A stretch of 62,959 bases of DNA, filler included, from Licmophora abbreviata (taxonomy: Eukaryota): the NCBI GenBank assembly GCA_900291995.1. It is 16 parts of 16 records of this genome, joined end to end, with 100 filler letters (N's around TTAATTAATTAA, not from the genome) between each part and the next. Parts side by side here need not be neighbours in the genome. Positions count along the whole stretch, not along the records: positions 5,074 to 8,163 come from OLMU01004296.1; positions 8,264 to 11,631 come from OLMU01004297.1; 14 more parts are not named here. One strand, given 5' to 3'. Below are positions 5,074-39,802 of this stretch, piece by piece (position 1 is the first letter of the stretch; each line of letters starts with the position of its first letter). The position numbers and the translations under genes are program-made. A model generated the notes under the pieces. That model saw only the letters and a list, made by a program, of their open reading frames with translations. It had not been told where the DNA came from and ran no database searches.

Positions 5074-6144
5074 AGCATCTTGCCTTCAAGGTACAGAAAA
5101 ATAGGGCTGAATTGGACTCTTGTCTGATGGCTGGATCTTTTTCGTGTCTGCGTAGAACTGCAGTACCGACTCTACGTGGGAGTGCTGCTGCCTTCCTGAA
5201 TGGATTGATACCTTGGTATCATATACGTACTATACCAGTTTACTCTCTCCTTACAGACTTCCACTCACTCACACATGCATTCCAATCCCACTATCCTATA
5301 CTTACACTAGGTCAAAACGACGCAACCACGACGCTACTTGGTCCGTCCCAATCAAGGCCTGGTAGGCCCCGGCGGGTCGGAGTCCATCAGCATCCTCCTC
5401 GTCGAAAAGGACAAGAACGTCTTGCTCCAGTCCTACGACCGCCTCGGACAGTCGGCCCTCGATCACTCCAAGGACAAGTTCCTCGTACAGTCCTGCGCTG
5501 TATCCGATGAGTTTAGTAAAAAGTACATGGAAGAAAAGACCAAAAGCGCCAATAGCAAGGGAATATCCGAGGCACTCACTTCCGTCTGGAACACTGTGAC
5601 TTCCTCGTCTTCGTCGGCCGTGATTAGCAACAAGAAACTGCACGTCAAACACATTGTGCAAGACACCAGCAGTGACGCTCCTGTGAAACTCATGCCCAAA
5701 ACGACGCACGACACTCCGCTCAGTGAGATTGAAAGCATGTCCCCGGAACAAATGTTTGCCGAAATTACCAATATGAGACGCAAATACGATGAACTTGTCA
5801 GTTTCAGTGTCAATCTCACGGCCGAACGAGACATTCTCAACAATACGCTCGAACAGACCAAGAGAGATTTGAACCGAGAAATGGCAGCCAGGATGAAACT
5901 GGAAAATAACACTGGCGGCAGTAGTACTAGCGGAGGACGTGCGTCTACGGATGCCAAGAGTACTGTCCTTGGAACCCTGCTTCCACTTCTTGTAGTGGCC
6001 TTGGCGTGTTTCCTGGCGGGGGTGCGCATGACCAATCAAGACAAGGTGGCCTTCTTGGAGGATGTGCCGCTCCTTTCGCCGTGGGTCTTTCCAGGGGACG
6101 ATCCTAGTGCAGCTGGTAGCGAGGAGGAGACCGTCGTCTACTAG
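5074..6144 (+). CDS. VAMP-associated protein (VAP/Scs2 family: MSP domain, coiled coil, C-terminal TM); 5'-partial, intron 5091-5310
   Basis: Removing GT(5091)..AG(5310) restores the VAP signature HLAFKVKTTQPRRYLVRPN; also DKFLVQS, a coiled coil and TM helix VLGTLLPLLVVALACFLAGV. Confidence 0.92.
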
Positions 6145-6597: not shown

Positions 6598-7944
6598 TTA
6601 GACCTCACCAGTCAACAATGGCGTGCGTGCGCCGTCCTCGGTTGTTGGTTCCTCCCGGCCGGTCGGCTGCAACTGGTGGTGCTCGCCTGTTGCTTCCTCG
6701 TCGCCGAGAAAGTGGAGGAGTATCTGGGTCGAGGTCCAGGAGGCCATCCAAGATGCTGCCACACCGAGAGGTGGAAAAACAAATGGAACATACAAGTTGG
6801 CTCCGGAGGATTGCATGTAGTTCTGTCGGAGGGACCAAACGGGACGGAAGCCACCCAACAATCCCGCCATCAACGCACTGGTGAAGACAAATGCGACCTG
6901 CATCACCGACAGGCGTTCCTGTACTAGCTTGTGGCGACGGTCAGCGAACGCGATTCCGTGAATTGACGTGGCGGGAAGAAAGAACATACAAAAGGGCCAC
7001 CAGTGGGCTGCCGCCATGAGTAAGAGGGCAGACGCCATCAGACGGTGGATGAGAGCAAATTCCCCCGGTTTGGTCCACCGGCGACGAAGATAGGCGGCCC
7101 CTGCGTGGCCTGCTAGAAGGAAAAAGCTCGCGATTCCCGACCAGTACAGAAGAACTTCACCGTTGGTAGCGATCTCCCAGAGATTTCGGAAACGATCCTT
7201 GGTGGAAAACAAAAACAGCAGTTCACCGACACCATGCAAAAGTCCCCAAAACGTCGTGGTGTAGCCTAAAAGCCTATGAAATTCAAACCAATACTTTTTC
7301 GAGGCGACATATGGTTGCTCCCCAAGGATAAGCTTGAAAAGAACCCCTCCAGTCGGAATCATCACGAGGGCGAGATTCCACGACAGCGGATGGGCCGCAG
7401 CGAGGGACACCGTCAGGACCATTCTCGTCCATGCCACATTGATTTCCTTTAGTCCTAGGCCGAACTGGACCAGAGGGTGGATAAACCACACCACATTCAT
7501 GCCCAGCCAGACAGGTGTAAGCCATCCGACGGTCGACGAGTTCGAAACGATCGGGCCGGAATGAGAGGAGGCGCTTCGACTCCAGCACGGTGACAAACAA
7601 GCGGCAAGGACGAGTGGACCGACCCAGAAGGCAAGAATAATCATCTGAAAAGGCGTAAGAGGTCCCCAAGAGCCCTTCTCGTAACAGTACTGTCCCCCGA
7701 AGACCGTCGAATTGGGACTCGTGCAGAAGTGGTCTTGACCAGCCAAGTTGGCCAGTCCTCCCACGCCGCCGACACCACCCACATTGAAGGAAATTTGAGC
7801 ATGCAGCAGAATTTGTCGAACGGGTTCGTACAAAATGGCAAAACACAGCATAACCCACAAGGCCACGCTAAAGGGGCTCCACCACCCGGTGGTGGTACTG
7901 CTGGGAGTCGTTGAGTGAGGAGCTGTCGGTGTAAGAGGATCCAT
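6598..7944 (-). CDS. Ferric-reductase-like transmembrane (di-haem) protein lacking the FAD/NADPH dehydrogenase domain
   Basis: Multiple TM helices; two H-x13-H pairs (FHRLLGYTTTFWGLLH and IHRLMASALLLMAAAH), with LRRR before the second, as in the FRE/NOX haem domain. No HPFT or GGxGxTP motif follows. Confidence 0.75.
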   Translation of the reverse strand: MDPLTPTAPHSTTPSSTTTGWWSPFSVALWVMLCFAILYEPVRQILLHAQISFNVGGVGGVGGLANLAGQDHFCTSPNSTVFGGQYCYEKGSWGPLTPFQMIILAFWVGPLVLAACLSPCWSRSASSHSGPIVSNSSTVGWLTPVWLGMNVVWFIHPLVQFGLGLKEINVAWTRMVLTVSLAAAHPLSWNLALVMIPTGGVLFKLILGEQPYVASKKYWFEFHRLLGYTTTFWGLLHGVGELLFLFSTKDRFRNLWEIATNGEVLLYWSGIASFFLLAGHAGAAYLRRRWTKPGEFALIHRLMASALLLMAAAHWWPFCMFFLPATSIHGIAFADRRHKLVQERLSVMQVAFVFTSALMAGLLGGFRPVWSLRQNYMQSSGANLYVPFVFPPLGVAASWMASWTSTQILLHFLGDEEATGEHHQLQPTGREEPTTEDGARTPLLTGEV

Positions 7945-8540
7945 GGTATGATTGATGCCTGGCGTGTCGGTACCCGGTAGATCGAAAACTGAAAAATGAA
8001 TTCATGCGCGAAAACCATTCTCCTAAACACGGCGGGCTTGAGGCCTTTTTGTAGGCTCTTCTCGCTTCTCGAACCTATTTTGATATTTTTCTGTTCAACC
8101 TATACATATGGTCTTTGATACCACTGAGTACTGGGACAATAAGTCGAAGCGCCGGGCGGCGCGNNNNNNNNNNNNNNNNNNNNNNNNNNNNNNNNNNNNN
8201 NNNNNNNTTAATTAATTAANNNNNNNNNNNNNNNNNNNNNNNNNNNNNNNNNNNNNNNNNNNNCGGATTCGATCTGTACATGTCCGGTGCTCTCTGTTGG
8301 GTCTCTCTAGGAGGCTCTCTTTTTCCTAAACGATTGCAACCCAAACCAATGCAAGCGAGTCTCCAGACTTCAAGTTAACCAGTACGTAGTAGGCCTTATC
8401 GTTGTAGTCTACGTATCATACTACCTAGCTTCAAGTTGGCCTGGCATATAGGCTCTTTGCATAAAAGGCCTTGGCTGCGCGCGCTTCCATGATCGCTCAC
8501 AAATTGAGAATCTTTTCAATCGAAAAAGCATCTTTCCACC

Positions 8541-9961
8541 ATGAAATCTCTCTTTTCGATTCTTGCCATCTCCCTTCTCTCGATCGACCACCGTGCCGTG
8601 GCGCAGAATCCTACAGGCTGTATCAGCTACGTCACCCCTGGCGAGGACTACTTCCCAGAAAAGGTCTCTCCTTCCTTCTCCAAGCTTTGGTCTGTTTCGT
8701 ACCACAAGACCTACAAGATCGCCAAGAACTTGGAGGATGGTACGACCTATCTCCTCTACCAGTGCGGAACCGAGCCCCCTGCGAACGTCCAGGCCGATCT
8801 GACTCTGTCCATCCCCTTGCAGAACGGAATCGCACTTTCGACGACACCTCATCTTCCCCACATGGAGTTGCTTGGCGTGCGCGACGAGATCAAGGCCTAC
8901 TTGGGAGATAAGCAGTGGATCTCCTCTCCGTGCATGAACGAACGCTTCACGACGGGGGAGACCATCAACATTCAGTACCCCGACGACGAGGGTGCCATTG
9001 AGCGTCTCTACGAAGCTACGAACAAGGACATTGTTCTCTTTCACAACCCAGGTTTCAATGCCAACGTCACGAACCGCGTCTCTGCCACGGCTTGGAAGGA
9101 GCGCAACAACCATGGGATTGGTGAATGGCACAAATACTTTTCTGTCTTCTTCAATTTGGAAGCCAAGGCCAACGAAGACTTTGAAGGCATCGTTGGTCGC
9201 TATGAATGCACCAAAGGAAACGCCAACGAAATCATTTCTTCGGATGCCAAGCCCAAGGTAGTAGTTGCTGAGTTCTCCACCTTCTGCGGTGGGTGGAGCG
9301 TGGGCGCATGCCCCAACTTTTACTGCGATCTGATTCAGGACTGCTCGGCAGAAATTCTGGAGAACGACAATGTCGGCAGTATTGTCAACCCTGCGTGTGG
9401 AACGGAGCGCAACTACAAGAGCGCCAAGGAGTTCGCCGAGTTCGCCAAGGATGCCGACGTCTGGATCTATCCCGGACATGGGGACTACTACTTTGACACT
9501 GCCTACGCAGACTTCAAGGAGGAACTTGATACTATGAAGTCCGTCCAGAACAAGCAGGTCTATGATACTGTCCTCACCGCCTTGAACACCTGGTTTGAGC
9601 ATCGTTTGGTCGAGTACGGTGAGTCTTCTTTGTTCTTCCGTATAAAGTTGGTATGAAACTCGTCTAACTTCTCACCTTCTCTTCTCGCGCATCAGACTTG
9701 GTCTTGGAAGACCTCTGCAACGCAGTTGGCGCCTCGCATCCGTTGCTTCCCCACGAGCCCGGTTTCTTGCGCAACGTGTTCACCGACCCTGTTGGGGACC
9801 TTGGACAATGCGAAGACCCCTCCGTCGGTTTTGAGCTCCGTGCTGAGGAATGCACGCCGTTGGTTCAACTCTTGGAAGGGACGTCGGCAGCGCCCTCCCT
9901 GACGATGGTTGGAGCTCTCACCGTGGCTTACTTGGTGACGCTCATCGGAGTTGCCTTCTAG
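8541..9961 (+). CDS. CBA1: Cobalamin acquisition protein 1-like (periplasmic-binding-protein-like fold); secreted with a hydrophobic/GPI-type C-terminus; intron 9619-9695
   Basis: Signal peptide MKSLFSILAISLLSIDHRAVA; motifs DYFPEKV, SYHKTYKI, YLLYQCGT and EWHKYFSVFFNLEAKAN recalled as typical of CBA1 homologues. The GTGAGT..CAG intron joins EY-D-LVLEDLC in frame. C-terminus SAAPSLTMVGALTVAYLVTLIGVAF. Confidence 0.82.
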
Positions 9962-11102
9962 TTTGTGAAATGAAAGGAGTCCGAATCCATGCTGAATTCG
10001 TAGTAACATAAAACAGCTTGGAGAGTATATGTATTCATGAACACCGGACCTCATGCATAGAACGTGTCCGATCCTGGGTTGATTCCGAGCATGTTCCCCG
10101 AAGCCGTGTCGTCGGGGTATTGTAAATATACCCTGATATCCCACCATCGAGTGAAGCAAAGTGTACCCTTCCACAAGATGGATAGGAACCAAGTGGGCGG
10201 CCCAGGTCTTTCTCGATGAGTGCATGATGTAGTGTGTGAACTTATTACATCGCACCAAAATGACGTCTTGGTGGTGTAAATCATCGCCGTGAAGTCATGA
10301 TCGTGCAATCAGATTTTGAACTCTCTAATAAGTATTGATGCTGCAACACCAGGAAGATCCGCTTGGACATATCTAGGACTGACTGACTGACTCTCCGTTG
10401 TGAGACCTGCGCTCCTCTAGCGAGTTCGAAAACGGGCGAATGCGCGACTTCGTAGTCTAGAGGCCGAGTACCGGTAGACGGCGTCTCTCGTCCGCACCGA
10501 AATGGTCAATGCGATCGCGTTGATGGTGTCGTGATTTGAATGGATCGAACACATCCTACATGGTACCAGGGAGCAACGAGGAAGTTGGATGAGCATGTGA
10601 GCATGCGATTCGTCCGCCCACACCAAGGGATCCAACCGATTTAAAAATTGGACATTATATACGAGGTCAGGAAGAGATTTCTCAAAGAGCTCGTCGGTGT
10701 AGATTTCGATGAACAAAAAGGGGACGGCGCTATGATCCTATCGACGCGGTGCGAGAAAGCCGCAGTGTGATGCCACAGCCATGCGCTTGGCACAGAGGAG
10801 GAGGAGGAGGAGGGGCGTGGATCTCGCTCTCATGCTATCAGTACACAGTACTTCGAATTCATCACGGCAGCGACAGGCAAACTTCGGTTTGATGATGCAA
10901 CCAGTATTTTTCTTTTTCATTACATTGACTTAACGTGCAAACTCACTAAAGAGAGCTACCGGTGTTCTACTGGGATCTTTCGTTTTCATTCTTCTTCCGG
11001 GCTCTGTTTGCAATCATTTCTTTTTTCTTTTGCTTTCCCTACCCCTTTGCTCAAATATAGCGACATGGAACATGGATGCTGTAAGACTTGCTACTTCTTC
11101 TT

Positions 11103-11631
11103 CTACCACCACCACCAAAATTTGGATTCAGTGCGACGCCCACCGCGTGTGATCTTGCCTGTAACCGAGCCTGCATTCTCGTCGTCGTGATCGTGCGTGG
11201 GAGCTGACCCACCTTGACCACTGGCGCCTCCATAGGATGCAGGGCCACTCTTGCTTCCGCTTTTGCTTCCACTCTTGCTTCCACTTGGCCCGCTCTTGCT
11301 TCCACTCTTGCTTCCACTCTTGCTTCCACTCTTGCTTCCACTTGGCCCGCTCTTGGGGGCCGGAGCAGGTCGGGTCGGAAATGGAACGGGGCGAGTTGGG
11401 AGAGGAAAGGGAGGTGGGAAGTTGGGTCGCGTGGGGACTGGTTGGCGGTGAGGAGTATACTGAGGGTGAGAATGGGGCGTGGGAGGGTTGTTAGGTGAAA
11501 CTGGGCCAGTTCGGGTCGGGAACGGCACAGGTTGGTTTCCTGGCGAAGGTCCTGGGCCCGGGGATGGTCCTGGACCTGGGAAAGGTCCTGGGCCCGGGGA
11601 AGGGCCTGGACCTGGGAAAGGTCCCGGACCC
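11103..11631 (-). CDS. Low-complexity C-terminal fragment (GPGP[FS]P repeats, Pro-rich, KSGS repeats, ends FWWWW); probably the end of the giant VWA-repeat protein
   Basis: Frame is open from the linker at 11632 to the stop at 11103, on the same strand as the repeat protein that runs into the other side of the linker. Confidence 0.7.
11243..11354 (-). repeat. 12-bp coding tandem repeat (KSGS)n
   Basis: Plus-strand unit CCACTCTTGCTT; translates KSGPSGSKSGSKSGSKSGSKSGPSGSKSGSKSGSKSG. Confidence 0.9.
11540..11631 (-). repeat. 18-bp coding tandem repeat GPGP[FS]P, truncated by the linker
   Basis: Units such as GGTCCTGGGCCCGGGGA and GGACCTGGGAAAGGTCC repeat up to the contig end. Confidence 0.85.
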
Positions 11632-11731
11632 NNNNNNNNNNNNNNNNNNNNNNNNNNNNNNNNNNNNNNNNNNNNTTAATTAATTAANNNNNNNNNNNNN
11701 NNNNNNNNNNNNNNNNNNNNNNNNNNNNNNN

Positions 11732-14700
11732 TGATACCACAAGATACGGCGTGTCGTCGAAAACATTGAAGTCACTGCCAATGACCGGCTGCCCAAACTG
11801 ATCCTCGCCTGTAGCTACTACCAGGCCGCCTGGCTCGCTGGGCTGCACGTTCTGTGTGTACGAGCATGTGTACGTCTGTCCTGGTAGAATGACTTGTGGG
11901 ATCTGGCATATTCCCTTCCCATCCAGATCACCATGAACCTCGTCGACGAGACTTCGAATCGTAACGGAATCGATGTCAGACTCATTCTCTATTGCAATTG
12001 TGAATGTGACGCCAGTGCCTCCAGGGGGAATGCTCACTGTGTCTGCTGATTTCGTCACAGCTATACTTGGCAGCTCATCTACAATGATAACCGTTGTGAT
12101 GTCTACGTCTGTGGCTTGATTTCCTTCATCGTCGACGCCGATTCCGGTCAGAGCACTGGTCTCGGAATCACCCGTTGATCCAGTGACGTTCCCTTCAAAT
12201 GTACAAACAAATGTGTCACCTGGTGCTAGAACAACTGGGACGCTACAGTCGCCCTTGCCGTTGAGATCGCCATATTCTTCGTCGACGAGGCTTGTGATGG
12301 TGAGCGGGTCAGAGCCCACAGAGTCATTTGTCACCCATGCAATGAACTCGATCATGCCTCCAGGCGCTGCAACGCTGCTCGGACTCGCAATCTTCGAGAC
12401 GGTTATTTGCGGCAGAACGTCCTCAACTAGTGAATCGAATCCTATGACGGGATTTCCTTCGTCGTCCACGCCAGACGCAATCACGACGGCTGGTTCTGTT
12501 TCTCCTCCGTCACCTGCCATTGTCACGGGGAACGTGCATCGGTACGTCGCTCCAGGCTGGATAATTTGCGGGACGTTGCAATTTCCCTGTCCATCCAGGT
12601 TGCCGTGGACAGAGTCTTCGAGTGCTGTTATTGTGACGGGATTGCTCTCCTCGGATAGGTTCGTGACTGATACTGTGTACATGGAATCCGCGCCCGGCTC
12701 GGGTGGGACAGGAAGAGGCGTTTTGACGACAAATATTTCAGGTTTCAGATCTTCCACTGTGACAACTGATTCCCCGCTATCTGCGACCTCATTTCCACTT
12801 GGATCCGTGCCAGTTGCTGTTGTTGTTCCTCTCTCGACGTAACCAACGTCACCCGATACATCTTCGGTGAAAGAGCACATATATGTCGCTCCTGGGGAAA
12901 GGGTGAATGGGACGGCACAAGACCCCTTTCCGTTGAGAGGGCCAGAGGCGTCGTCGACAAGAGAATAGATATCAATAGGATCGGCTGCTGAGTTGGTGAC
13001 CATCACTGTGTAAACCACTACCGCACCGGTTTCTGGGACTGTCGTTCTATCGGGCACTTTCACCACCGTAATCTCGTTCACAGTCCCATCAGCAATCACC
13101 GCAACTGCGGCGATGGCTGAAGCAGTGACACTATTGCCCTCGTCATCTTGGGCCGCTGCCGTGACAGTTCCGATTTCCTCGTCTCCCCCTTTGCCAGCAA
13201 CTAGATGAGAGTAAGCACACACAAAAGTGTCTCCGGGTGAAATGATTTGGGGCACGAAACAATTGCCAGCTCCATTGAGGTCACCGTGGACGTCATCGAT
13301 GAGGCTCGTCACCGTCAATGGGTCACCATCGTTGCTTTCATTTCGAATCGATATCTCAAAATTTGTCAGTTCACCGGGTTCTGGGACTGAAGTGCGATCT
13401 GGTCTCTTTTCAATGCTCATTTCAGGCAATACATCCACGACTGTAATGACAGCTGTGTCTGATGCAGACGCTGGATTGCTTTCGTCGTCGCGTCCTGACA
13501 CCATTGTTGTGCTTGTTTGCGTATCGCCAGCAGAGCCAGTCACCATGCTGGTGTAAGCACATGACCGGGTCTCGCCTGGCTGAAGAACAACGAAGACGAG
13601 ATTGCTGCAGCCCTTTGTGCTGAGGTCACCTTCAACACTGTCGTTTAGTGCATTGATCGTGACTGGATCCCCGTCACCGGACAAATTCGTGACCATAACA
13701 GTACAAATTATCTCGTCCCCGGGCTCCTTTACAGTTGTAGACGCGGCCACCTTGGTCAAGGAGATTTCAGGGGGGGTATCTGTAATCAAGACTGATGTGT
13801 CATCAGCCGCCGCCACGGGATTGTTCTCGTCATCCTGTCCAGTAGCAGACGCAATTCCGGATACCGATGTTCCTGTCGTGCCCATCACTGTCGTCTCGTA
13901 CGAGCACGTATACGTCCGTCCTGGATCGATTACCCGGGGCACAGAGCAGCTCCCTTGTCCATTGAGATCCCCGTCGATGCTATCGGTCAAGGAGTTGATG
14001 GTAACAGGATCGCTTTTCCCGCTCTCGTTGGAAAGTTCGACGGTGTACGTCACAGTACCGCCAGGCTCGTCAACAGACATCACATCAGACGACTTCTTCA
14101 GACTGATGACAGGGTCAGCGTTGACAATTGTTACGGAAGTGCTGTCTGAGTCGGTCACTTGGTTCAGTTCATCGTCCTCGGCAGTCACAGTGACAACCCC
14201 GGTTTCAATTGAGCCAGCAGTGCCTGATACTTCTTGCAAGTAGTCGCAAGCATACGCCTGCCCGGGGAGAAGAGTCTCACTTAGAATGCTTGTGCAGGTT
14301 CCCAAGACACTCAAATCTCCGTGCTATGTAAGAGTGCAGGTGAAGTATGCTGAAGTTAGAAAAAGCGTGTTCGACGAGACAAACATGTTTTCAATGGCAA
14401 AGATTCTCACCTGGCTGTCAACTAAGCTTTTCACAAAAATCGGCTCCTCGGAGTCGTTCATTACTTTGACAGAGAAGCTGACGAGTCCTCCTGGTTCGTT
14501 AATAAGGGAGGTCCCGGCTGTTTTTTGCACGGAGACTGCTGGTAGAGTGTCTTCAATCACGATTGTTCCCGTGTCTGAAGAGAATACGAGATTACCTTCT
14601 TCATCTGTACCATCTGCCGTCAATGTACTGGAGAAAAAATCCCCCGCATTTCCGGACACGTTTCCAATGAAAGCGCATGTTATTGATTCGCCGGGAAGGA

Positions 14701-15970
14701 TCGTGAGGGGCAGCGCGCAGCTGCCAAGCCCGTTCAGGTCACCAAACTCAGTGTCAACTAGGGTCGTGACATTCAAAGAATCACTTGATGTAGGCGAGGT
14801 ATTTTCGATGGTGACCGTGAAGACCATTTCCGCTCCTGGCTCTGGGATCGTTGGTACATCAGGAGTCAACTGGACACTTAGGTCAGGCAGCACGTCTTCG
14901 ATCGTCACTTCTGTAATATCAGAAGCTGTAACCTGATTTCCCTCTTCGTCCTCTCCGGTAACAGTGGCGTTCCCTTGCGACACAAAGCCTACAATTCCTG
15001 CCACGAGGGCATCGTACTGACATTCATAGATTGCGTCCGGTAATATGACGAAAGGGACAGAGCAATTACCAAGAATGTCAAGGGGGCCATCAATCGAGTC
15101 TACCAAAGAAAGGATCGTCAAGGCGTCCCCGCTTCCAGAAAGGTTCTCAACACGAACCATATAAGTCACGTTTCCTCCCGGTTCTGGCAATCTCGAATCA
15201 CTGACAGATTTATCGATTGTGATTCTTGGAAGCGTGTCGATAATTTGGACGACATCGACGTCCGCTGCCGATACAGGAGTACCTTCGTCATCGGTCCCAG
15301 CGGCGGTTATCTCTGAAATCCATGTTGACCCAGCGTCCCCGGCGACAGATGCGACGAACGAACAAGAATAGACTTCACCAGAGACAATCGCTTGGGGGAC
15401 CACACAATCACCAGTGCCGTTCAGAGGTCCATATTGGCTATCGATGAGCTGGTCAATCCGAACAGGATCAGTTTCATTCGACAGATTCTTAATCTCCACG
15501 GTCCATAATATGGGCGCACCAGGTTCAAACACAGTTGAGCTGTTCGCGATGTACTCTACTGAGATACCGGGTACGGCGTTAAGGATCTCAATGATTGTCT
15601 CGTCAAAGGCCTGTGCCGGATTCCCTTCGTCATCTGCACCTTGTACTGTAACTGTGCCGTTCAAGATATCTCCACCACTACCACTCTGTGGAGCTGTGTA
15701 TGTACAGCTGTAGGATCCGCCAGGCTGAATGATGATTGTCAGCTGTTGACATGTTCCCTTGCCACCAAGCGGACCATCAATGCTGTCCTCGAAGCTCGAT
15801 ATCGTAACAGGGTCCCCTGCTGGACTGTCGTTGAAAATCTCAACAAAGAAGTCGACGTCATCCCCTATCTCCGGAATGCTCGTTGGGTCCGCCGTCTTTT
15901 CGACTCGCATGACAGGAAGCGTGTCCTCGATGGTGACTATTGCGTCATCGGCTGCGGAAACGGGGTTCCC
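11732..15970 (-). CDS. Giant secreted repeat protein, segment 3 (about 12 Ig-like DUF11/DUF7507-type repeats); intron 14324-14410
   Basis: Repeats of about 115 aa: I.V.K.A....V.EPGG.V.F.V.V.N.S....VTI.SL.D...G.L.G.G.C..P..I.PG..Y.C......G..G.......TA.G.DDEGN.V. The GTGAGA..TAG intron joins LVDSQ-HGDLSVLGTC in frame. Confidence 0.9.
15607..15970. repeat. 364-bp near-identical direct repeat, copy A (copy B at 16187-16550)
   Basis: Sequences match at offset 580, with one mismatch seen (15908 C vs 16488 G; Met vs Ile). Confidence 0.93.
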
Positions 15971-16070
15971 NNNNNNNNNNNNNNNNNNNNNNNNNNNNNN
16001 NNNNNNNNNNNNNNTTAATTAATTAANNNNNNNNNNNNNNNNNNNNNNNNNNNNNNNNNNNNNNNNNNNN

Positions 16071-17646
16071 CGCCCTTGATGGCTCCAAACTGATAGAGGG
16101 TGCCACGGACGGATAGTCTGATGGCCCTTGGGAGGTTGATGGACTCAAAGAGGGATCCCTTGTAATCTGAATCAGTGTCGTGTCGGAGGCCTGTGCCGGA
16201 TTCCCTTCGTCATCTGCACCTTGTACTGTAACTGTGCCGTTCAAGATATCTCCACCACTACCACTCTGTGGAGCTGTGTATGTACAGCTGTAGGATCCGC
16301 CAGGCTGAATGATGATTGTCAGCTGTTGACATGTTCCCTTGCCACCAAGCGGACCATCAATGCTGTCCTCGAAGCTCGATATCGTAACAGGGTCCCCTGC
16401 TGGACTGTCGTTGAAAATCTCAACAAAGAAGTCGACGTCATCCCCTATCTCCGGAATGCTCGTTGGGTCCGCCGTCTTTTCGACTCGGATGACAGGAAGC
16501 GTGTCCTCGATGGTGACTATTGCGTCATCGGCTGCGGAAACGGGGTTCCCCTGCTCGTCTTCTCCCATCGCCGTACTCGTGCTGGTCTCGGTGTCGCCCA
16601 TACTTCCGGTGACAAGGCGCTCATATGCGCACGAGTAGGTACCAAAGGGCTGAAGTGTCAGAGGGACGCTACAGTTTCCTTTTCCGTCCAGATCTCCGTG
16701 AGTGTCGTCTGTCAAGTCGGTCACTGTGACAAGGACGGGGTCGTTGTTCTGGATCTCGACGACAAAAGTCACATTTGCAGCGGGCTCCGTGATGAGATTG
16801 GGCAGTGCAGTCTTGTTCAGGGTCAGCGCGGGGCCGGTTGAAAGGACTGTAACTGTTGCGTCGTCCGATGCAACGACCTTGTTTCCGTCGTCGTCTCGCC
16901 CGGTCGCGGTTGCAATGCCAGTCTGGGTTGTTCCAACATCGCCTATAACGGGGAACTCGTACGCACACACATAAGAATCTCCGGGTTGTAGAGTGAGTTC
17001 AATGGTACAGTTCCCGGTCTGGTTCAGGTTCCCGTGCGCCGTATCGGTCAGGTCTTCAACGATGACCGCTTCGCCCGTCTCGTTGTTCCAGAGTTCGATG
17101 ATAAACTCCACCAAACCTCCTGGCCCATCAATCGTCGACTGCGTGGCGGTCTTTCTGATGCCAATCATGGGAAGCGTGTCTTCGATAGCGACAGTGGCGC
17201 TGTCAGAGGCCGATACGTTGTTGGCGTTCTCAGATCTCCCACCCGTTGCGGTGACGGTGCTTGTGCTGACGTCGCCAGCATTTCCGACGATGGGCCACAT
17301 GTACTGACAGGTATACGAAGCCATGACGGGAAGCACTTGCGGCAAGATGCAGCTACTCTCCGAGAGGACACTGGCGTCCAGGTTCCCTGCCAAGTCGTCA
17401 AGAAGGCTGAGAAGTGTCATTGGATCGCCACCCCCTGAATCATTTGTCACGACAACTGTGAAGTTTACTAGCTGCCCTGGTTCCGGAACAACTGGTGTGT
17501 CAACGGTTTTTTGCACCAAAATATCGAGGCCATATGAGGGAGCTTGTGAAACTGATGGAGACGAGGAAGGGTTGCTTGAAGGCTGCATGCTTGTCGATGG
17601 TCCCGAGGATGGGACGCTCGACGGAGCGCTGGAAACCGAAGGACTT
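16071..17646 (-). CDS. Giant secreted repeat protein, segment 2 (4 Ig-like repeats flanked by PSxxPS linkers)
   Basis: Frame is open across the whole contig; same repeat consensus; both ends lie in Pro/Ser repeats. Confidence 0.9.
16187..16550. repeat. 364-bp near-identical direct repeat, copy B
   Basis: Matches 15607-15970. Confidence 0.93.
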
Positions 17647-17746
17647 NNNNNNNNNNNNNNNNNNNNNNNNNNNNNNNNNNNNNNNNNNNNTTAATTAATT
17701 AANNNNNNNNNNNNNNNNNNNNNNNNNNNNNNNNNNNNNNNNNNNN

Positions 17747-20700
17747 TGTAGTGGATGGAATCGAGCTAAGGGATGGTGACAATGACGGGACTGAGGTTGG
17801 ATTTTGGGAGATCGAGGGGCTTGAGGAGGGATCTCTGGAGGGCTGAACACTTGTCGACGGAGACAACGATGGGTGGTCGGAAGGAGCTTGGGAACCAGAA
17901 GGGCTTGAGGATGGCGCCCGCGATGGCGCAGATGAAGCCGACGGTGCTAGGCTGGGTGATGTTGACAGACTTGGCTGAGAACTCGGAGAAAGTGAGACGC
18001 TTGGTGTACTACTTGGGATCGTCGAGGTGCTCGGTGATGCGGATGGTTCTGAATAGATCAGAACTGTCGCGTTTGCAGAGTCGCTCACAGGTGCGTCATC
18101 GTCGTCTTTCCCTGATGCTAGGACCACATCTATATCCTCGTCGTTCGGTCCACCTACGACATTCCTTTCGAACGTGCATGTGTACGTATCCATGGGGAAA
18201 ATAGTCACAGGTAGGGTGCAGCTTCCCACATTGGCGAGACTGAAAGCATTTTGTCCGTTCACGCTCTCAGTCAGAGTATCCAAAATAACAGAGTCGACAG
18301 TTGAAGGATTGAAGACCTCTACGGTGAAGTTCACGGATCCTCCGGGGACAGGAATAATATCAGGGTCTGCTCTCTTCGACACAACGATTCCTGCAGACGG
18401 GATATTCTGAATCTCCACAGTCGCATTCGAAGAACCTGTTACCAAGGCGCCATCGTCGTCAATCCCCGAAGCGGTTACTGTGTCTAGCTCCGTATCAAGG
18501 TAGTTCCCTGCGACAATCCTCGTAAACGAGCACGTATAGGACGTCCCTGGCTCCATGATCTGAGGCACCGTGCAGTTACCCTGCGAGTCCAGATTCATGA
18601 TGTTACCACCTTCGACCAGATCCGTAAGTGAATTGATGATAACCGTATCCACGGTCGATGGATTGTAGATGATGGCAGTGAACGTAACGTCATCCCCCGG
18701 TTCATTGGGGAACTGAGGAGAAGCCAGTTTCGTCACTACGATTCCAGCCGATGGTACGTCGACTATCGTAACAGTTGCGCTGCTACTGCCAGAAACCTGG
18801 ACCCCATCATCGTCGACTCCAGAAGCAGTTATCGTATCAGTATCAGTATCGCTAGGGACCCCCACGACCTCTCGCGTAAACGAGCATGACCACGAGCCTC
18901 CCGGAGAAATGCTCAGGGGAAGGTCACATGTTCCAGTACCGTTCAGATCCATATTCATACCACCCATAAACGAGTCGGTGAGTTCGGTTATATCAACCGT
19001 GTCGACACCCGAGGGGTTGTCAATCAAAACTGTGTACGTGATCGTTCCTCCTGGTTCGTTTATCGATACTGGATTGGCCGATTTTGTTACAACAATACCC
19101 GCCGAGGCGACATCAGCAATCGTAACATTTGCCTCCGAAGAGCCTGAAACAGGCACCCCATCATCGTCCTCACCAGACGCGGTCACCGTGTCAAAGTCTA
19201 CGTCTCCTGGATCTCCTGCAATGTTTCGAACAAAAGTACACTGATAAGTCCCACCTGGTGCAATCGTCTGGGGAAGCGAGCAGCCATTTCCATCCAAGCT
19301 AACTGTTGTCAACACTTGATTTTCATAGTAAGCATCTTCGAGAACCGTTATTGTGACCACATCTGCCGACGATGGATTAGTGATCACAGTTGAGAAGGTC
19401 ACTGGGCCACCAGGCTCATCAATCAGTGGCGTCATGGCTACCTTCGACACCTCGATTCCCGCGGACGCAACATCTCCCACGGAGACAGTTGCGTTGGCTG
19501 TACCAGAGACAGGAACAGAATCGTCATCGGCGCCGGAAGCTAATACAACATCCATCTCAGTGTCTCCAGCATTACCAGAGACAAATCGCGTGAATGAGCA
19601 TGAGTACAAATCCCCTGGGTCGATTGTCTGTGGCACAGAACAGTCTCCAACTCCATTCAAGCCAGTCGCGGAGCCACCATCGATGGTATCGGTGAGGGTA
19701 TCGATCACAACCGTGTCAGCTGCAGAAGGGTTGATAATTGAAATGGTAAAAATTACATTTTCACCTGGTTCCGATACCATTGTAGGATTTGCAGACTTCA
19801 TGACCATGATGCCTGCAGAGGGGACATCAATAGTGGTGACCGCAGCCTGGGCTGTTTCGGAGACAGTCTCGCCATCGTCGTCTTCTCCAGACGCAGTGAC
19901 GATGTCCGTCTCGATGTCCAGTGGCATTCCAGTGACATTTCGGGAGAATGCACAATAGTAAAAATATCCCTGAGGTGCATCGATCTGGGACATGAGGACT
20001 TGAGGGGTTGCACATGAACCTAATCCATTCAAGGAAAACGCTTGACCACCGTCGATTGCGTCGGTGAGTGAATCAATCGTCACAGTTTCACACGAATCAT
20101 TGATAATTCCCACTGTGAAAGTCACAACTCCTTCAGGCTCGCTCACTGCAGTAGGAGAAGCGCTCTTCGTGACGGTAATGGCGGGGGTGTCATCCACCGT
20201 GATAGTCGCCGAACAAGTGGCGGTTCCACAGTCACCAGTTACCGTGAGGGTAACCACAGTGTCACCCATACTGTAGGGTCCTTCGTTGTCAATCCCAACA
20301 GAGTAAGCGTTTCCATTACTGATAGTTCCACTCGTAATGTCATTCAAGAAAGTTTCCAAGTCAGGAGGGGTGTACGTGCAGTCGTCCGTGTCGCTGACAT
20401 CCACCGTGATATCGTTACAGACAGCCGTCGGAGGCGAAGCAGTTACGGCGATTGATGCTGTGCATGTATCAGTAGCTCCGCAGATATCCGTGGCAGTGAG
20501 CGTCACCGCGGTCGAACCGACGAAGTAGGGACCAGGGTCGCTCAGTGACAGTGTGAGGCTATCATTGTCGGTGCTTGAAGCGCCAATGAGATCGGCAAGG
20601 GCTTGGACATCGGGAGGTGTATATTGACACATACCGTTGGAAAAGCCATTCGAAGCAAATGATTGATCCGCACAGCCTGCAGTAGGATCTTCGTTGGTCA

Positions 20701-21726
20701 CAGTGATGGTTCCTGTACAGATTTCGCAGTAGCCCATCGTGTCGTTCTTCACTAGGTCGACGTCAGTAACACCAAGCGCAAAGGCGGTAGTTCCAGGAGG
20801 ATCGTATTCAATCGACAAAGGGAGACCATTGGGACCAATATCTGGACCTTGCTTGATGACATCTGACGAAAGCGTTGCTGTGCAGGTGCCCTGGTCGTGT
20901 GCCACTACGATGTCCTTGCAGCCGATTGGGATTTCGGCAACGCATGCTGCGAGGACATCTTCTATGACAACTTGGGTCAGTGCATTGTTGGCAAAGTCAA
21001 TGAGACTGTAGGTATTTCCATTGAGTGCAATTCCTGCATATCCTGGATAGGTATTGTCGAAGACGCCACCGGTATTCCCACCACCGCTTTCCTCGTTCGA
21101 AACGATGGGAAAGATATATCCGTTGTTCGTGTCGAGAATGGCATTGAGTTCTGCAAGGCTGTCGTAAGGATCGAGATCTCCATTGGTTTCGACATCTGTA
21201 AAGATGAGGGCGCAGAAGGTCCGAGGCTGAGTTGCAAAGGACAGGCCCAGGGTGTCGTCTGCTGACTGTCCAATGGCAGTGTAGCCAGGCTCGATGCTGC
21301 CATCGGCCTGAAGCAGGTTGAGGTTCGCAATAAACTGTGCCTGATCACTGGTGAAGTCTCCATGAGCGATCGGCAATCCGCTGTTTGCAGATCTTCCAAA
21401 ACCAACAACGGCGACCTGAAACTGGTCGTAAGTTGCGTTGACGAGCGCATCAAAGACAACCTGTGTGTTTGACTGCATCGTAGCCTGCTCGTTGCCCATA
21501 CTTCCGGACTCATCGAACATGAAGATGATGTCGCTCGACGTATAGGCTTGCGTGCAATCCTGCGCATCTGTGTGATAGAGTTGATGTAAGAGGAGGAAGT
21601 GCATAATGATTGGTTGGTGTTTTGTTGACTTGGGTCGATATTCGCCATATTGATTTGAATCTTACCACTCCTGAAGACGGCCGAGAAGACGGTCAGTAGA
21701 CCGACCGCGGCGTTCAGAAACTTCAT
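17747..21726 (-). CDS. Giant secreted repeat protein, segment 1: signal peptide, VWA domain, 3 HYR-like domains, 6 Ig-like repeats, Pro/Ser linker; intron 21568-21665
   Basis: Exon 21726-21666 encodes MKFLNAAVGLLTVFSAVFRS; the GTAAGA..CAG intron joins in frame to DAQDCTQ. VWA MIDAS motif DIIFMFDESGSM; HYR-like VGSTAVTLTATDICGATDTCTASIAV. Confidence 0.92.
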
Positions 21727-26038: not shown

Positions 26039-26676
26039 AAGTCACCACGTTACCTGGCGGTACAGGAAATTGTTGCCTACCGGTACATGATACGACAATA
26101 CATACATGTCAAAGAGGGGCTCCAGTAAATGATGCCGGGTCAGATGGTAGCTGTAGAGCTGAAGACGATTCAGGCGTAACAGGTACCCAGTGGTAGTCAC
26201 AAAACTCTAAAATCTAGAACAATACTCGTTGTAAACATACACGCAAACACAATGCTTGTAGAAGCCTGGTCTACTCTACAGCCAACCCGGCTAAAGTATC
26301 TGTGTAATTTGGCCACTGGTACCGGATTCGACTACAGAAATCAGCGGCATCCCTGGATGGTATTCGGCGAAAATGCAATGTACAGGTATGTGTATGAATT
26401 CTTTTTGTTTCTCCTCGCACTGCACTGGCTATCGGCCCTGCTCACACACTGTCTCTAGTATAAAAATTACAGATCAAAAGAGCAAGGCACCATACTTCGT
26501 CTGAGTTCCAGTTATAGAAAACACTCATCAAGAAAAGCCCCCGATACTCTCATCTCTGCGATAGAGCGAGAGGGGTNNNNNNNNNNNNNNNNNNNNNNNN
26601 NNNNNNNNNNNNNNNNNNNNTTAATTAATTAANNNNNNNNNNNNNNNNNNNNNNNNNNNNNNNNNNNNNNNNNNNN

Positions 26677-27430: not shown

Positions 27431-28552
27431 TTTCTCCTGAATCGAATTGTTCCAAGTGTTGCAGAACATTCACCGAAACGTGATTGACTACTCTAGGAAG
27501 CTGTTTGATTTCTCACGTAATGGAATGGAAAGCATATGGCCGTACGGGTGCGCTTATTTCCAATCTTTATATTAGTATATTCTCGTCTACTAAACCTGAT
27601 CGTTTGCTTTTCAGTCTCTAGCGTTCATTCTATCTAGAAGAAGCGACTACTTACAAAACCAGTGGAGACCTTTCTTTCCAGTAACTGACCAATGGGCATA
27701 GAAGCACAGTCGCCCTCTCAGGCGTACGGTACCGGTAGGCTATTCGCCGTACGATGTACTCAGAACTCAACCTCTACGAAGGCGTCTTACCTTGCAACAA
27801 TCCAATTGGGTCGGGGGCGTTGCCAGATTGTCTTCTTTTCTTCGAAGTACAGGAGTCTGCTGTTTCACAAAGCTGCGAACCCATATCCGCTTAAGTGGCG
27901 GGGCTTGGCTGCGCCAGTGTAGCGATCTCGTCATTTTCAGTGTAGAAATAGTATAAGACCTGGAGAGACAAAAGGAGGACATGTTGTCAACAGGTGCATT
28001 GCGCCAAGGCAGGCACATGCGTCCCTTCCGGCAGGCTCGTCTTGGGTTGAAGAGGAAATATTCAGAGCGACAGGAATGCAGGATTGCCGTCCGCCGTCTA
28101 AAGACCTGCAAGGTTCGTAGAGGTCGGAGGTTGCTGCAAATGATATTCCGACCAGATTCTTTCGCAGGAGGTGCCGCGTCACGCGCCATGGGGAATTTGT
28201 TAGTGACTACTACTACTACTACTCTAGATAACAAATGTACGATGACNNNNNNNNNNNNNNNNNNNNNNNNNNNNNNNNNNNNNNNNNNNNTTAATTAATT
28301 AANNNNNNNNNNNNNNNNNNNNNNNNNNNNNNNNNNNNNNNNNNNNCGGAGCAAAAGTGAGAGAAAAATGAGCCGCGCTCCGGCATAGCTGCGTTATACA
28401 AGTTCAAAAGTATGCTGCTATTCGTGTTTAACATCTGAAATAAAAATAGGATCAACAACTCTGAATAGAACATTCCCATTCAATTCCGTCCGATCAAGGG
28501 TGCTTCTAAAGCATCCACGTGTAACTGAGATTTGTCCGTGGGGTCTGTGTGT

Positions 28553-32293: not shown

Positions 32294-34261
32294 TCACGGC
32301 TCACCTTCCTTCACCTCATCATGCGGAGCATCCACTGGGATGCTCTCATCCACTTCACGCTCACAGTCGACCTCAATCCCTTCCGCCTCCTCCTTGGGCT
32401 TGTCGAGAGTCTCCTCATCCTCGGGAGCGTCAACTTCGGCTTCTTCTTCTTCGTCCTCTTCCTTGACATCGACCGCGTGGCGCTTTGCCATGTCTTGCAT
32501 GTCAATGACGACTTTCTCCTCTGGATCGTCAGCGATCTTGGGAATGACAGAGAGCTCTTTCTCAATCAGAGTACTCAGCTTTGTGCGCTGCGCTGTTACA
32601 CCCTCCACCAGCTCTTGGCGTTCCTTCTGGGCATTGCCAATGGCATCGAACTGTGACATGACCGCAGTCATGAGAGTCTCTCGCTCTCCCAGGCTTTCCT
32701 CGACCTCTTCTTGCTGTCGCTGCAGCATGGCGGCAGCTTCCTCTTGTTCCTTCTTGAACTTTTCGTACATCTCCGTCTGTCGCTGCGCTCCTGCGAGAAG
32801 ATTGTCTTGGGTCAGAGCAGCAAGAGCCATAGTTTCTTCGTGTTTTGCGGCCTGAGCGACGATCAGCGTCTGCTGTTCCGTCATTTCATCCAGCGCCTTG
32901 GCGACAACTGCGAGCTTGCGAGTCAGCATCTTGGCTTGCGCCCTCAACTCCTCGCGTTCTCCTTCGACTGCCTTCAACCGTTCTGTGTAACTCTCGACAG
33001 CGTCGCTTTGGTCAGCCGTACTATTGGCGAGACTCGCCGCTAGAGCACTGACTTGGGCGGCAAGAGCGTGCTCGTTGTCGACCTTCTTCTTGAGCTGGGC
33101 CTCGAGGATTGCACAGGTTGCTTTTGATCCCGCCCAGTCAACCTCGAGGGCCTTGAGCTTATCTTCAAAGTGACCAATGCGCTTTCCTTTCTCCTTCTCC
33201 ATGGTTGCGATGGTCGCTAGGGCCTTCTCGAGCTTGACCTCGTTCGACGAGTTAAGGTCGGTCACCTGTTGGAGTTTCTCCTCGAGGACCACTTTCTCGG
33301 AAGAAAGAACTGCATTTTCGCTTCGCAAGACAGCCTCAAGCTCTTCCTTCTGCTGAGAGACTGTTTTTAGACTCTGGTCGACAGTGGCGATCTTGGTGGC
33401 GAGGAAGCGCTCAGTGTCTCCACGGCTAGAGAGCTGAGCCTCGAGTGAGTTGACATGATCGACCAGGACCTGCGATGTTTCCTGAGTCTTGTCAAGCTCA
33501 GCCTGCAGCTTGACGACCCTTTCGCGAAGCTCATCACGCTCAGCGAGAGTGTTGGTCTCGATGGCCCCCACCTCGAAAGCATGGCGGCTCTTCATTTCAA
33601 TGATCTTGGCGTCGAAAATTGCACGCTGTTCAGCCGTGACAGACGCACGCTCAGACGCAGCCGCAGCAGTTGCATAGTATGAAGGACCACGCTCCAGGGC
33701 GCGCAAGAAGGCATCGCGGTTAGGGCTTTTGGAGGCTTGGGCGAGCGCAAGCGGGAGGCGTCCCTTGCGGTCCTTGATGTCGACGGACTGTGGGTATGCA
33801 GCCAACAACAAGTTCACGATGGCCTCCGAGCTACCGGTTCGAAACGCAAGGTGAAGAGGCAGCATTCCTTGATCATCTTTACACTCAGATCCAGCAGGAA
33901 AGGCACATAGGAGGGCCTCGACAACGTCCTCGGGGGCATTGAAGATGATGGAGGCATGCAAAGGAAGCAGCCTCCAGCGGAGCCTTCCGTCCTTTTCGAA
34001 GCGCGAGACCCAAGTCTTGGCCTCGTCTGGATTCTCCCTGGACAGGATGAGAGTTGCTCCCCAGTCGCGCTTCTGAAGAGACTGGTAAAGCATGGTAGGG
34101 TCGTCATCGAAGTCGCATTCGAAGGCTAATGCAGCTTCGACAGGAGGCTCAACTCGTTTCTCGTCTCCTTCCGCTCGCGGCGTCGGAGCCTTGTTCTCCT
34201 GGTCAACCAGCACATGAGGCTCCTCGTCGACATGGAGCTCGGGGGCTTGCACAGGCGCCAT
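32294..34261 (-). CDS. Ankyrin-repeat plus long coiled-coil protein (ECD[FY]D..T.LY family)
   Basis: ECDFDDDPTMLYQ, WRLLPLHASII, DDQGMLPLHLAFR and KDRKGRLPL ankyrin-like repeats, then about 400 aa of heptad-rich sequence and an acidic tail. Confidence 0.88.
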   Translation of the reverse strand: MAPVQAPELHVDEEPHVLVDQENKAPTPRAEGDEKRVEPPVEAALAFECDFDDDPTMLYQSLQKRDWGATLILSRENPDEAKTWVSRFEKDGRLRWRLLPLHASIIFNAPEDVVEALLCAFPAGSECKDDQGMLPLHLAFRTGSSEAIVNLLLAAYPQSVDIKDRKGRLPLALAQASKSPNRDAFLRALERGPSYYATAAAASERASVTAEQRAIFDAKIIEMKSRHAFEVGAIETNTLAERDELRERVVKLQAELDKTQETSQVLVDHVNSLEAQLSSRGDTERFLATKIATVDQSLKTVSQQKEELEAVLRSENAVLSSEKVVLEEKLQQVTDLNSSNEVKLEKALATIATMEKEKGKRIGHFEDKLKALEVDWAGSKATCAILEAQLKKKVDNEHALAAQVSALAASLANSTADQSDAVESYTERLKAVEGEREELRAQAKMLTRKLAVVAKALDEMTEQQTLIVAQAAKHEETMALAALTQDNLLAGAQRQTEMYEKFKKEQEEAAAMLQRQQEEVEESLGERETLMTAVMSQFDAIGNAQKERQELVEGVTAQRTKLSTLIEKELSVIPKIADDPEEKVVIDMQDMAKRHAVDVKEEDEEEEAEVDAPEDEETLDKPKEEAEGIEVDCEREVDESIPVDAPHDEVKEGEP

Positions 34262-35130
34262 GGTGTTGATAGATCAGCGAGCAGAAAGCTTTCTTTATGA
34301 TGAGTGCACTGACAGCAACTTTGCGATGAATGCACGAGCGGCGATTCGATGGCGAGTGATTTTGTGAGAATTTCGGCGAGTTCGTGTTGCTTGCGAGTTT
34401 AAAAAATATCAATTATCGCCGGAATACTATTCTATTTAACGAGTGATTTTTAATATGTATACAGTGTCAAATAATGTTATTTATGTAGTCGCCGAAATAG
34501 CGTAATTATGGCCTTCTAGCTGCCCGCGTTCGACGACTAAATAGATTCCCCGTGACGGTACTCACATGCCTCATGCCGGTAGGTCCATCATACCCGTACG
34601 AGTACGACGGTCCTGCTCGATGCATTTGTTGATCGAGAATGATGAATGATTGAATGATCGCTGATGACCATCAACACGGTACGAATATCATACCGCTTTT
34701 ATGTATTTACTATTTACTTCTCATGCGAGGCCTGGGGTTAGGGTTATTGCAGCTCGGAAGAGCGCCACTGGCACTTCAACTCTATGTATGAATGTGCAGA
34801 ACCCAGCAATGGTTTCTAGAGCACTTAGTAAAATAATGTGTACTGGTACGGATTTCCGGCAAAATAATCTCATGAAAATGAGCACAGTAGGCCTGGCCTA
34901 GTTACATCTATAGTACCGGTACCTCGTAGTAGGACTGTTTATTAAAATACGAAGTACCGATGCGGTTAGTACCCTAGAGACCTGGAAGACCACATCACGA
35001 TATCCACGGCCGGTCAGCCTCTACAGACACAAGCAAAAGCACCCCCCCCCCCCCCCCATCAATGTACGCAACAACCGTGAAAATAAGTCAATCTCCTTTT
35101 CAGTCGTACCCCCATGGTACTGTTTGGGTT

Positions 35131-38553: not shown

Positions 38554-39398
38554 TTACTTCTTTCCCTTTTTCTTGAAGATGTTCTTGAGGCCCTTTTTGC
38601 TAGAGTCTAACGATGGAAAAGAGGACGGCCCCGCGTTAATGCATTTTCCACAATGATGACGAGTGTGAACAGCATCTGATAGCGGCACTTACTCTTCTTG
38701 TCCAACTTTTCTTTAACCTTCGCGAGCTCTTGTTTGGTTTGACGTTCGTTCTCGACAAGGTCCCGCGTTGATCGTTGCAGCTCGTTGAACTTTTCCTTTT
38801 CCTGTTCTAGAGAAGCCTCCACCTCCTTTGCCTTTTCAATCTCCGAAGAACGCTGAGCCTCGTATCTTTCTTGGAAATCATCTGTGTAGGTGTTGATGAT
38901 GTTGTAAAGAGCCTCGTTCGATCCAAAGGGAGCACACGCCAGCGGCTCGCGGTCCTTGTGTCCCTTGGCGCGGACAGCATTAGGGAATTTTTCAATCAAC
39001 GCCCAGATGGTCTCCACGCTAGCACCATGTCGGAACGCCAAGTGAAGAGGGAGATTTGTCTGGTCATCGATACATCGAACGCCCTTTGGGTAGGCCTCGA
39101 TGAGTGCGGTGACGACATTGGTCGGCGCCCTGAAGAGAAGCGCTGCATGCAGGGGAAGCTGCGTCCAACGCACGTTTCCAAGAATATCGTATCGTGTGAC
39201 CCAGGTACGCACTTGGTCAGGTTTCATATAGTAGTCAAGGGCATACCGCCAATTCTTGTCTTCGAGTGCTTCGTACAGCTTCGTAGCTTGATCGTCGTAG
39301 TCGCATTCCAGAGGCTCCTCTTCTTCCTCCGTATCCTCCGTGACAGCTTTGGCCATTGTCTGGTCCGCGCACGAGAACCATGATGTGTACAGCGACAT
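38554..39398 (-). CDS. Ankyrin-repeat plus short coiled-coil protein (same family) with a polybasic C-terminus; intron 38607-38692
   Basis: ECDYDDQATKLYE, WTQLPLHAALLF and DDQTNLPLHLAFR. The GTAAGT..TAG intron gives terminal exon NSSKKGLKNIFKKKGKK*. Confidence 0.85.
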
Positions 39399-39802
39399 GT
39401 TAGAGAGGGCGACCGGGACAGCAACTACGACTCCAAGCGAAGAAGCGGCGAAATCACTACTTTGTGAGCGAAGGCAAAGCCATCCTGCAACAACCGATCC
39501 ACAACGAGCGCTTTCGGCGATGCGCTGGCGTCTTTTATTGGATTAGTGAGTAAACGTCTCTAAGAGTTATGATACATTTGATATGATAAAAGAGAGGAAG
39601 ACACAATTTTGTCAAAAGGGACTCTTATAATGAGCTACTACTCAGTACTGAAGGTTAAAATGAGGAAGCAAAGTGAAAAAATGGTGGACGCATGACGGAC
39701 CACACGCTGGTACCCGCCTCCATGGTGAGGCGATGTAAGACTATTCAATAAAAGCATCAGCCACAGGCCACAGCTTTCCTTAAGGGTGGTTTCTTCAGCG
39801 CC

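Follow-up and report, generated by a model that had tools for sequence, protein, structure and literature searches.

In several diatoms, the gene for an altered copy of the vitamin B12-capture protein is paired back to back with that for an unusual metal reductase of the membrane, and our analysis suggests that the two form an undescribed catch-and-reduce uptake system with a cargo that may be something other than ordinary B12. The pair was found in a stretch of 62,959 nt from Licmophora abbreviata (hereafter the window), which consists of contigs of assembly GCA_900291995.1 in numeric order with an artificial 100-nt spacer between each and the next. The reductase gene lies on contig C4296, and the gene for the presumptive binder, a relative of the algal B12 uptake protein CBA1, lies on C4297 (Table 1). 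We give something close to, if short of, an even chance to the reading that the pair is a conserved capture-and-reduce module under common regulation, with a ferric chelate or haem as its cargo.

The pair is conserved elsewhere. A scan of metagenome contigs with the reductase returned eight loci, two of which (L025 and L027) extend more than 1 kb upstream of the gene. L025, an ungapped 11,763-nt contig at 40% GC from a distant diatom, carries a CBA1-like gene head-to-head with the reductase, the two starts lying about 960 nt apart. Both L025 proteins are about 39% identical to those of the window, and the flanking genes differ between the two loci. For pairs without retrievable DNA, we compared reductase contigs and CBA1 contigs of at least 3400 nt by exact size, a comparison from which linkage is inferred and which carries no information on orientation. 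Six sizes are common to the reductase list (24 sizes) and the CBA1 list: 3777, 5891, 8681, 10216, 22311 and 23774 nt. These coincidences involve 6 of the 13 contigs in two linked CBA1 clades, where 0.03 would be expected, and 0 of the 83 other CBA1s; the others include the proteins whose length was insufficient for tree placement, except P0061 and its cluster, which were assigned at 82% identity. The 18 unmatched reductase contigs are uninformative, since the CBA1 lists are partial. Size matches at 1899 and 2277 nt fall below the 3400-nt cut and were dropped, and they indicate the chance rate among short contigs; a near match (5891/5897 nt) was left uncounted. All linked reductases fall inside one clade of 22 (support 1.0). 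A Mantel correlation across the six pairs (r 0.77, 5/720 permutations) was not counted as co-evolution, because shared ancestry gives the same result. The initial annotation had looked to synteny in other genomes to bear out its proposed pairing, and the same head-to-head pair on L025, with six further size-matched pairs, provides it: this is conserved divergent binder-reductase linkage of the FBP1/FRE2 type.

In the window itself, the pair is interrupted by the linker between C4296 and C4297, as the initial annotation had cautioned. The two genes that it reported, with starts at 7944 (minus) and 8541 (plus) facing apart, are confirmed and are divergent. The spacing of about 600 bp between them does not stand, since that figure includes the artificial linker and only 496 nt of intergenic DNA, split by the linker, are visible. 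Whole contigs are missing from the window at the linkers at 11632-11731 (C4298, 1600 nt, a piece of a gene), 26577-26676 (C4303, 881 nt) and 28247-28346 (C4305, 718 nt); a linker can thus conceal real sequence, and 600 bp is no measurement. Two public contigs extend 135 and 183 nt beyond base 8163. Contig numbering follows physical order locally: at 6 of the 19 contig junctions tested, the two contigs either overlap or share a gene that spans the junction, in one of these six cases via a repeat only. The C4296/C4297 junction was among the 19 and has neither, and DNA searches of this genome with both contig ends matched only the ends themselves, giving no bridge. Given a junction that is an artificial linker and is bridged by no contig shown, the adjacency could be an assembly artefact and the pairing chance. 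We consider this very improbable. Because the L025 pair is ungapped, six contig sizes coincide, and a promoter element is found on both contig ends (described below), adjacency is supported indirectly, and the two genes are almost certainly neighbors in this genome.

The promoter element points to shared regulation of the pair. Five copies of a dyad, AGSCYATTT-N3/4-RRGCC, lie between the two genes on L025. When a matrix trained on these five copies alone was run across the whole 63-kb window, the best site was at 8438-8454, to the right of the gap, and the site at 8041-8057, to its left, tied for second with a site at 39079. Two of the top three sites therefore lie within 496 of about 61,600 nt, for which simple arithmetic gives a chance of ~2e-4, or ~2e-3 counting non-coding DNA only; the motif had first been spotted with both regions in view, so the matrix test was not fully blind. 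The exact pattern fitted to both sites occurs at four places in 29 Mb, two of which are the C4296 and C4297 ends. Long-spacer matches are weak, since one of 17.8 bits fell in a bacterial coding region. An attempt to name a regulon through the element failed, two exact patterns giving 4 and 5 genome matches versus 3 and 15 for reversed controls. Apart from the gap flanks, four of six pattern places are in long open frames and two are between genes without an evident uptake role. A near-perfect palindromic copy was also seen at about position 967 of L048 (C2709), again between two genes of no evident uptake role. Searches of this genome for a diatom FBP1, ISIP3 or METE locus to serve as a comparison yielded no clear case, the assembly being fragmented and the searches weak.

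The binder gene is predicted to encode a 447-aa product with its stop at 9961, and an alternative acceptor at 9710 likewise preserves the frame; the L025 gene is interrupted by an intron at the equivalent place. The model of the protein (pLDDT 92) has a class III solute-binding protein fold, which siderophore, haem and B12 binders all match at Z 11-16.6. Its BtuF-like class III fold, signal peptide and single membrane anchor at most are those of the CBA1 family, and by eye the C-terminal tail looks like a glycosylphosphatidylinositol (GPI) anchor signal. When positions from PMC10828217 are placed by motif spacing, the binder keeps 14 of 15 placeable CBA1 signature positions, and the CBA1 cluster K78, P118, L136, F214, F215, N216 and E218 corresponds to K59, P92, L111, F203, F204, N205 and E207. 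Three of the four pocket residues W255, W394, F395 and E396 are kept, the equivalent of W255 being Val242, and the binder has clade-specific histidines at His191, His313 and His354. 

The nearest named protein is from Amphora (77% identity), which by itself points to a probable raphid pennate diatom. One Amphora data set contains a CBA1 of the linked type (P0049) as well as another CBA1 (P0382). Viral and prokaryote collections held no relatives, an Rfam scan of four loci gave no match, and a profile search of solved structures returned nothing significant. A lectin match from a sequence search of solved structures was dismissed as a short-motif match only.

The pocket differs in both linked clades. 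In a CBA1 tree of 198 sequences, which include the window clade, the L025 clade and 128 outside sequences, the pocket Trp position is W in all 128 outside sequences and F or V in 13 of the 16 members of the window-protein clade. The L025 clade keeps this Trp and has instead replaced the pocket Glu (15/15), a residue present in 109 of the 128 outside sequences. A histidine loop that follows the final core strand is present in 18 of the 198 sequences, all within the window and L025 clades (0/128 outside), and in 7 of 8 reductase-linked binders. The new histidines are presumed to lie in the binder cleft.

A second CBA1 gene in this genome, on C1959, encodes a protein 42% identical to the window binder; no reductase was found in the 4 kb examined near it. 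About 150 nt upstream, it has a 12/14 match to the B12 promoter consensus of PMC12538271, complete with the CACGTG core. No site as good as 12/14 was found in the whole window, where a partial look-alike has a broken core, and the best site in the complete 961-nt L025 intergenic region matches at 8/14 and is also without the core. The core is absent from the 496 visible intergenic nt here, part of this promoter lying in the gap. The motif is needed for expression but insufficient for B12 control (PMC12538271), and the comparison is therefore moderate evidence. Because the C1959 copy keeps all pocket residues and the 12/14 consensus match, it is more likely than the window copy to be the ordinary B12 gene; the window binder is a diverged CBA1 paralog. 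The label of CBA1-like B12-uptake gene that the initial annotation gave to the window copy thus survives as to family and fits the C1959 copy better as to B12.

The match of the reductase to PF01794 is weak (E 1.3e-4, below the curated cut-off). The ferric reductase domain spans approximately residues 130-340 of the 448-aa protein, with two extra helices at each end, and the structure is predicted at pLDDT 83. In a fold search, the nearest structures were NOX5-TM, NOX2, DUOX and STEAP (Z 12.7-10.7), the top seven matches all being NOX, DUOX or STEAP (best Z 12.7, rmsd 4.7, 193 aligned); Foldseek gave no match at E 0.001. The protein has the six-helix domain and the haem His pairs on transmembrane helices 3 and 5 (TM3 and TM5) that define the ferric reductase domain superfamily. 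The putative ligands His223, His237 and His314 are present in 25 of 25 aligned sequences and His300 in 24 of 25. No FAD- or NADPH-binding domain was found in the 448-aa open reading frame, whether from the frame itself, by Pfam or in the model. NOX proteins carry an extra His four residues past the second TM3 His, and a Thr-Gly in TM4 (PMC3591440). In the family described here, the former position is Glu241 in 22 of 25 sequences and His in none (0/25), and no Thr precedes the Gly in 25/25. Because the NOX signature is absent, the sequence points to a metal reductase rather than a NOX. The first haem His is kept (His223, 25/25), where STEAP and YedZ would have Arg.

Two other parts of the reductase are conserved. 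The loop of residues 49-97 would face the outside or a lumen, as deduced from the helix count in the model, and is a candidate docking site or substrate cap. In the presumed cytosolic tail, 17 of 20 clade members have PL[LIVM] somewhere in their final 45 residues, versus 1.1 in shuffled tails, and we take the Pro-Leu-Leu (PLL) of the window protein to resemble a dileucine sorting signal for the endosome or vacuole. A search restricted to proteins of 246-784 aa gave 24 close homologs among 8000 scored candidates, with sizes of 296-508 aa; the wider family has 210 representatives at 50% identity, and the nearest Atlas cluster is entirely eukaryotic. Three long relatives, P0282, P0295 and P0311, carry the same GGxGGVGG loop; their haem domain contains two extra helices, and their C-terminal part resembles a dehydrogenase. 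All three are homologous to the reductase over its N-terminal architecture (probability 99.5), and Pfam finds FAD and NAD domains in P0282 and neither in the other two. The simplest reading of these sequences is that the short reductases have lost the dehydrogenase part.

In the model we favor, the surface-anchored CBA1 paralog would not take ordinary B12 but would capture some other metal chelate in its oxidised state, with haem or a ferric chelate as the most likely cargo and the new histidines perhaps acting as metal ligands. The complex would probably be endocytosed, and binder and reductase would come together either on the cell surface or inside an endocytic compartment. The bis-haem reductase, sorted via its PLL tail, would send an electron across the membrane, and reduction of the metal would release the cargo. 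Since the reductase has no dehydrogenase domain, a separate electron donor would be required, for example reduced flavin or cytochrome b5 reductase. We tentatively propose, as a view that could well prove wrong, that CBA1 paralogs have been re-purposed in diatoms, possibly twice, as histidine-ligated tetrapyrrole receptors, with either haem or a non-standard corrinoid as the ligand. These receptors would act in the endocytic pathway together with an undescribed bis-haem reductase that has no dehydrogenase part, and a promoter element of their own would control them.

There are precedents for several parts of this model. For FBP1/FRE2 of Phaeodactylum, siderophore capture, endocytosis and reduction have been proposed, and this too is a divergent diatom gene pair, in which one gene encodes a class III binding protein and the other a protein with a ferric reductase domain (PMC6876252). 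However, FBP1 is FhuD/DesE-like whereas the binder here is of the CBA1 family, and FRE2 has the FAD and NADPH domains that our reductase lacks (PMC6876252). By analogy, the module most likely works like FBP1/FRE2 without being a member of that group, as binder family and reductase architecture both differ. The FBP1/FRE2-like module of the initial annotation is supported by conserved synteny and the shared promoter element, and needs correction as to the reductase, which is not FRE2-like. The Candida albicans haem pairs PGA7/FRP1 and CSA1/FRP2 are likewise head-to-head binder and ferric-reductase-like genes with conserved synteny, and function in reductive tetrapyrrole uptake with surface and vacuole locations (PMC9635878, PMC13581393). 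Their CFEM hemophores are unrelated to CBA1, and the fungal reductases would belong to a different family. The binder resembles the CBA1 proteins of Phaeodactylum and Chlamydomonas (PMC10828217) in its fold, in having a signal peptide and a hydrophobic tail at the C-terminus and, by motif spacing, in 14/15 signature positions. It differs in the change of the pocket Trp to Val, three new histidines, the lack of an intact B12 G-box, the linked reductase, and the presence of a more ordinary CBA1 in the same genome. Like STEAP1 and YedZ/MsrQ, the reductase has no dehydrogenase domain and would need an outside electron donor (PMC3591440, PMC10659578); STEAP1 can receive electrons from reduced FAD or cytochrome b5 reductase (PMC10659578). 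Those proteins retain only two or three of the haem His and probably bind a single haem, whereas the reductase here has four His and extra helices and, unlike them, is homologous at its N-terminus to full-length forms that still have FAD and NAD domains.

Several observations weigh against the favored model. The fold search cannot name a ligand (BtuF matches at Z 11.0-12.4 versus a best of 16.6), most CBA1 signature residues are retained in the binder, and residues were matched to those of Chlamydomonas CBA1 through the spacing of motifs, with no alignment to that sequence. Among the linked binders, P0059 keeps both the pocket Trp and the pocket Glu, and P0406 is without the His loop histidine; in the pair P0007/P0406, a window-type reductase is joined to an L025-type binder. 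L027 (64% GC), which is probably not from a diatom, has a reductase homolog with no CBA1 in the 1.6 kb upstream. The promoter element marked no iron gene, nor any other gene of known role, in this genome. Finally, the window and L025 clades are not sisters, the L025 clade being nested among ordinary-looking CBA1s (support 0.997), and the reductase linkage would thus either be old, and then lost or unseen elsewhere, or have arisen twice.

It is possible, if unlikely in our estimation, that the cargo is a Co(III) corrinoid, perhaps aquo-cobalamin, cobinamide or some other base-off form with a His as its ligand, and that the reductase converts the metal to Co(II), with loss of an axial ligand and release of the cargo. 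Co(II) loses an axial ligand, and this idea would account for the membership of the binder in the CBA1 family with most signature residues kept, for the 10/14 remnant of the B12 promoter consensus at 8474-8487, and for a CBA1 that has no known partner. In addition, His354 adjoins the Trp-Phe-Glu motif that PMC10828217 places around a modelled B12. The CACGTG core, present at C1959, is however absent from the 961-nt L025 region and the 496 visible nt (moderate evidence only), and pocket residues are altered in both linked clades. The Phaeodactylum gene upstream of CBA1, moreover, is Phatr3_J29488, which we take to be a desaturase. Of the cargoes suggested by the initial annotation, Co(III)-cobalamin is still a candidate, and another metal chelate is now at least as likely. 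Quite unlikely, in our view, is that the two genes have a common signal or promoter but no common molecule, or that the reductase-like protein is a non-catalytic receptor or escort. The lack of a dehydrogenase domain and of a donor gene nearby, and the conflict between binder and reductase trees in one pair, could be explained in this way, and fungal Frp1/2 mediate uptake of ZnMP, which is not reducible (PMC9635878). Yet the four haem His are almost invariant, linkage persists at about 39% protein identity despite different flanking genes, and FBP1/FRE2 and PGA7/FRP1 each act jointly on one cargo.

Table 1. Features of the reductase and CBA1-like locus, in window coordinates.
Feature	Position	Strand	Details or basis
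Reductase gene, single exon, 448-aa membrane protein	6598..7944	-	Open reading frame; Pfam; model; fold; homologs
Pro-Leu-Leu in presumed cytosolic tail of reductase	6613..6621	-	Clade conservation
Codons of putative haem ligands His223, His237, His300, His314 (two H-x13-H pairs)	7003..7278	-	Alignment
Conserved loop, residues 49-97, GGVGGVGG and YC motifs	7654..7800	-	Alignment
Promoter element copy (AGSCY-WTWT-N3/4-RRGCY dyad)	8041..8057	+	~97 nt upstream of reductase start, left of gap
Artificial linker C4296/C4297	8164..8263	none	N44-TTAATTAATTAA-N44, 100 nt
Two overlapping promoter element copies	8438..8470	8438-8454 minus; 8450-8470 plus	Plus-strand copy with 7-nt spacer; right of gap
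Partial B12-consensus look-alike, 10/14, CACGTG core broken	8474..8487	-	Motif scan
CBA1-like exon 1	8541..9618	+	Signal-peptide-like start, class III (helical backbone) solute-binding fold
Predicted intron, 77 nt	9619..9695	+	Donor and acceptor by sequence; L025 intron at equivalent place
CBA1-like exon 2, ending in hydrophobic tail (residues 428-446), no cytosolic part	9696..9961	+	Hydropathy

Other genes were noted along the way. Downstream of the reductase is a gene at 5300-6144 (plus), presumably VAMP-associated-protein-like, that is not beside the pair in L025, and position 6399 is A in the window and C in two public marine runs. A very large gene for a secreted-looking protein extends over five contigs (~11100-21660, minus), and encodes many Cys-containing repeats, each about 120 residues long, along with spacers rich in Ser and Pro and an end rich in Pro and Gly. 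Clustered genes at 32294-34273, 38607-39542, 46962-48493 and 58435-59619 encode, by eye, an ankyrin-like stretch (PLHAA/PLHLA) followed by a coiled coil. Elsewhere in the assembly, C3748 and C3749 (L036, L037) are consecutive contigs with two similar full-type ferric reductase genes, probably a tandem pair. On C4242, a 641-residue open frame (L052:302-2224, minus) fuses a PF01497 binding domain to a further domain that by eye resembles an ATP-using amidase, and is a possible second corrinoid-related gene. Contigs C6277, C4952, C4697, C1800 and C4694 (L038-L040, L051, L054) look bacterial, with high GC, operon-like organization and, by eye, an msrPQ-like pair; family searches in this genome consequently mix diatom and bacterial genes.

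According to 10.64898/2026.08.07.738727, CBA1 is the sole B12 uptake protein known from algae, and it has no known partner. A literature search for CBA1 with ferric reductase found nothing on this pair by title or abstract start, most subscription papers falling outside its scope, and the pair is unmentioned in the available portions of 10.64898/2026.08.07.738727, 10.1101/2020.07.01.177865, PMC11439496, PMC9731442 and PMC3476827. These proteins may already figure among the CBA1 hits listed in PMC10828217 and the reductases compiled in PMC6876252, with the linkage unremarked. The available part of the 2013 superfamily survey holds no description of a eukaryotic four-His domain-only reductase.

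A conserved reductase partner makes the release step of CBA1-type uptake testable. If the proposal of re-purposed tetrapyrrole receptors is true, the reductase would be the first partner to be named for any protein of the CBA1 family, and the pair would represent a diatom route for the uptake of haem iron or for the salvage of other corrinoids. If the linked paralogs bind haem or a ferric chelate, diatoms would have an added route to organic iron. In that case, the CBA1-like transcripts that are used as field markers of B12 stress would be a mixture, which the Trp/Glu/His pattern would separate.

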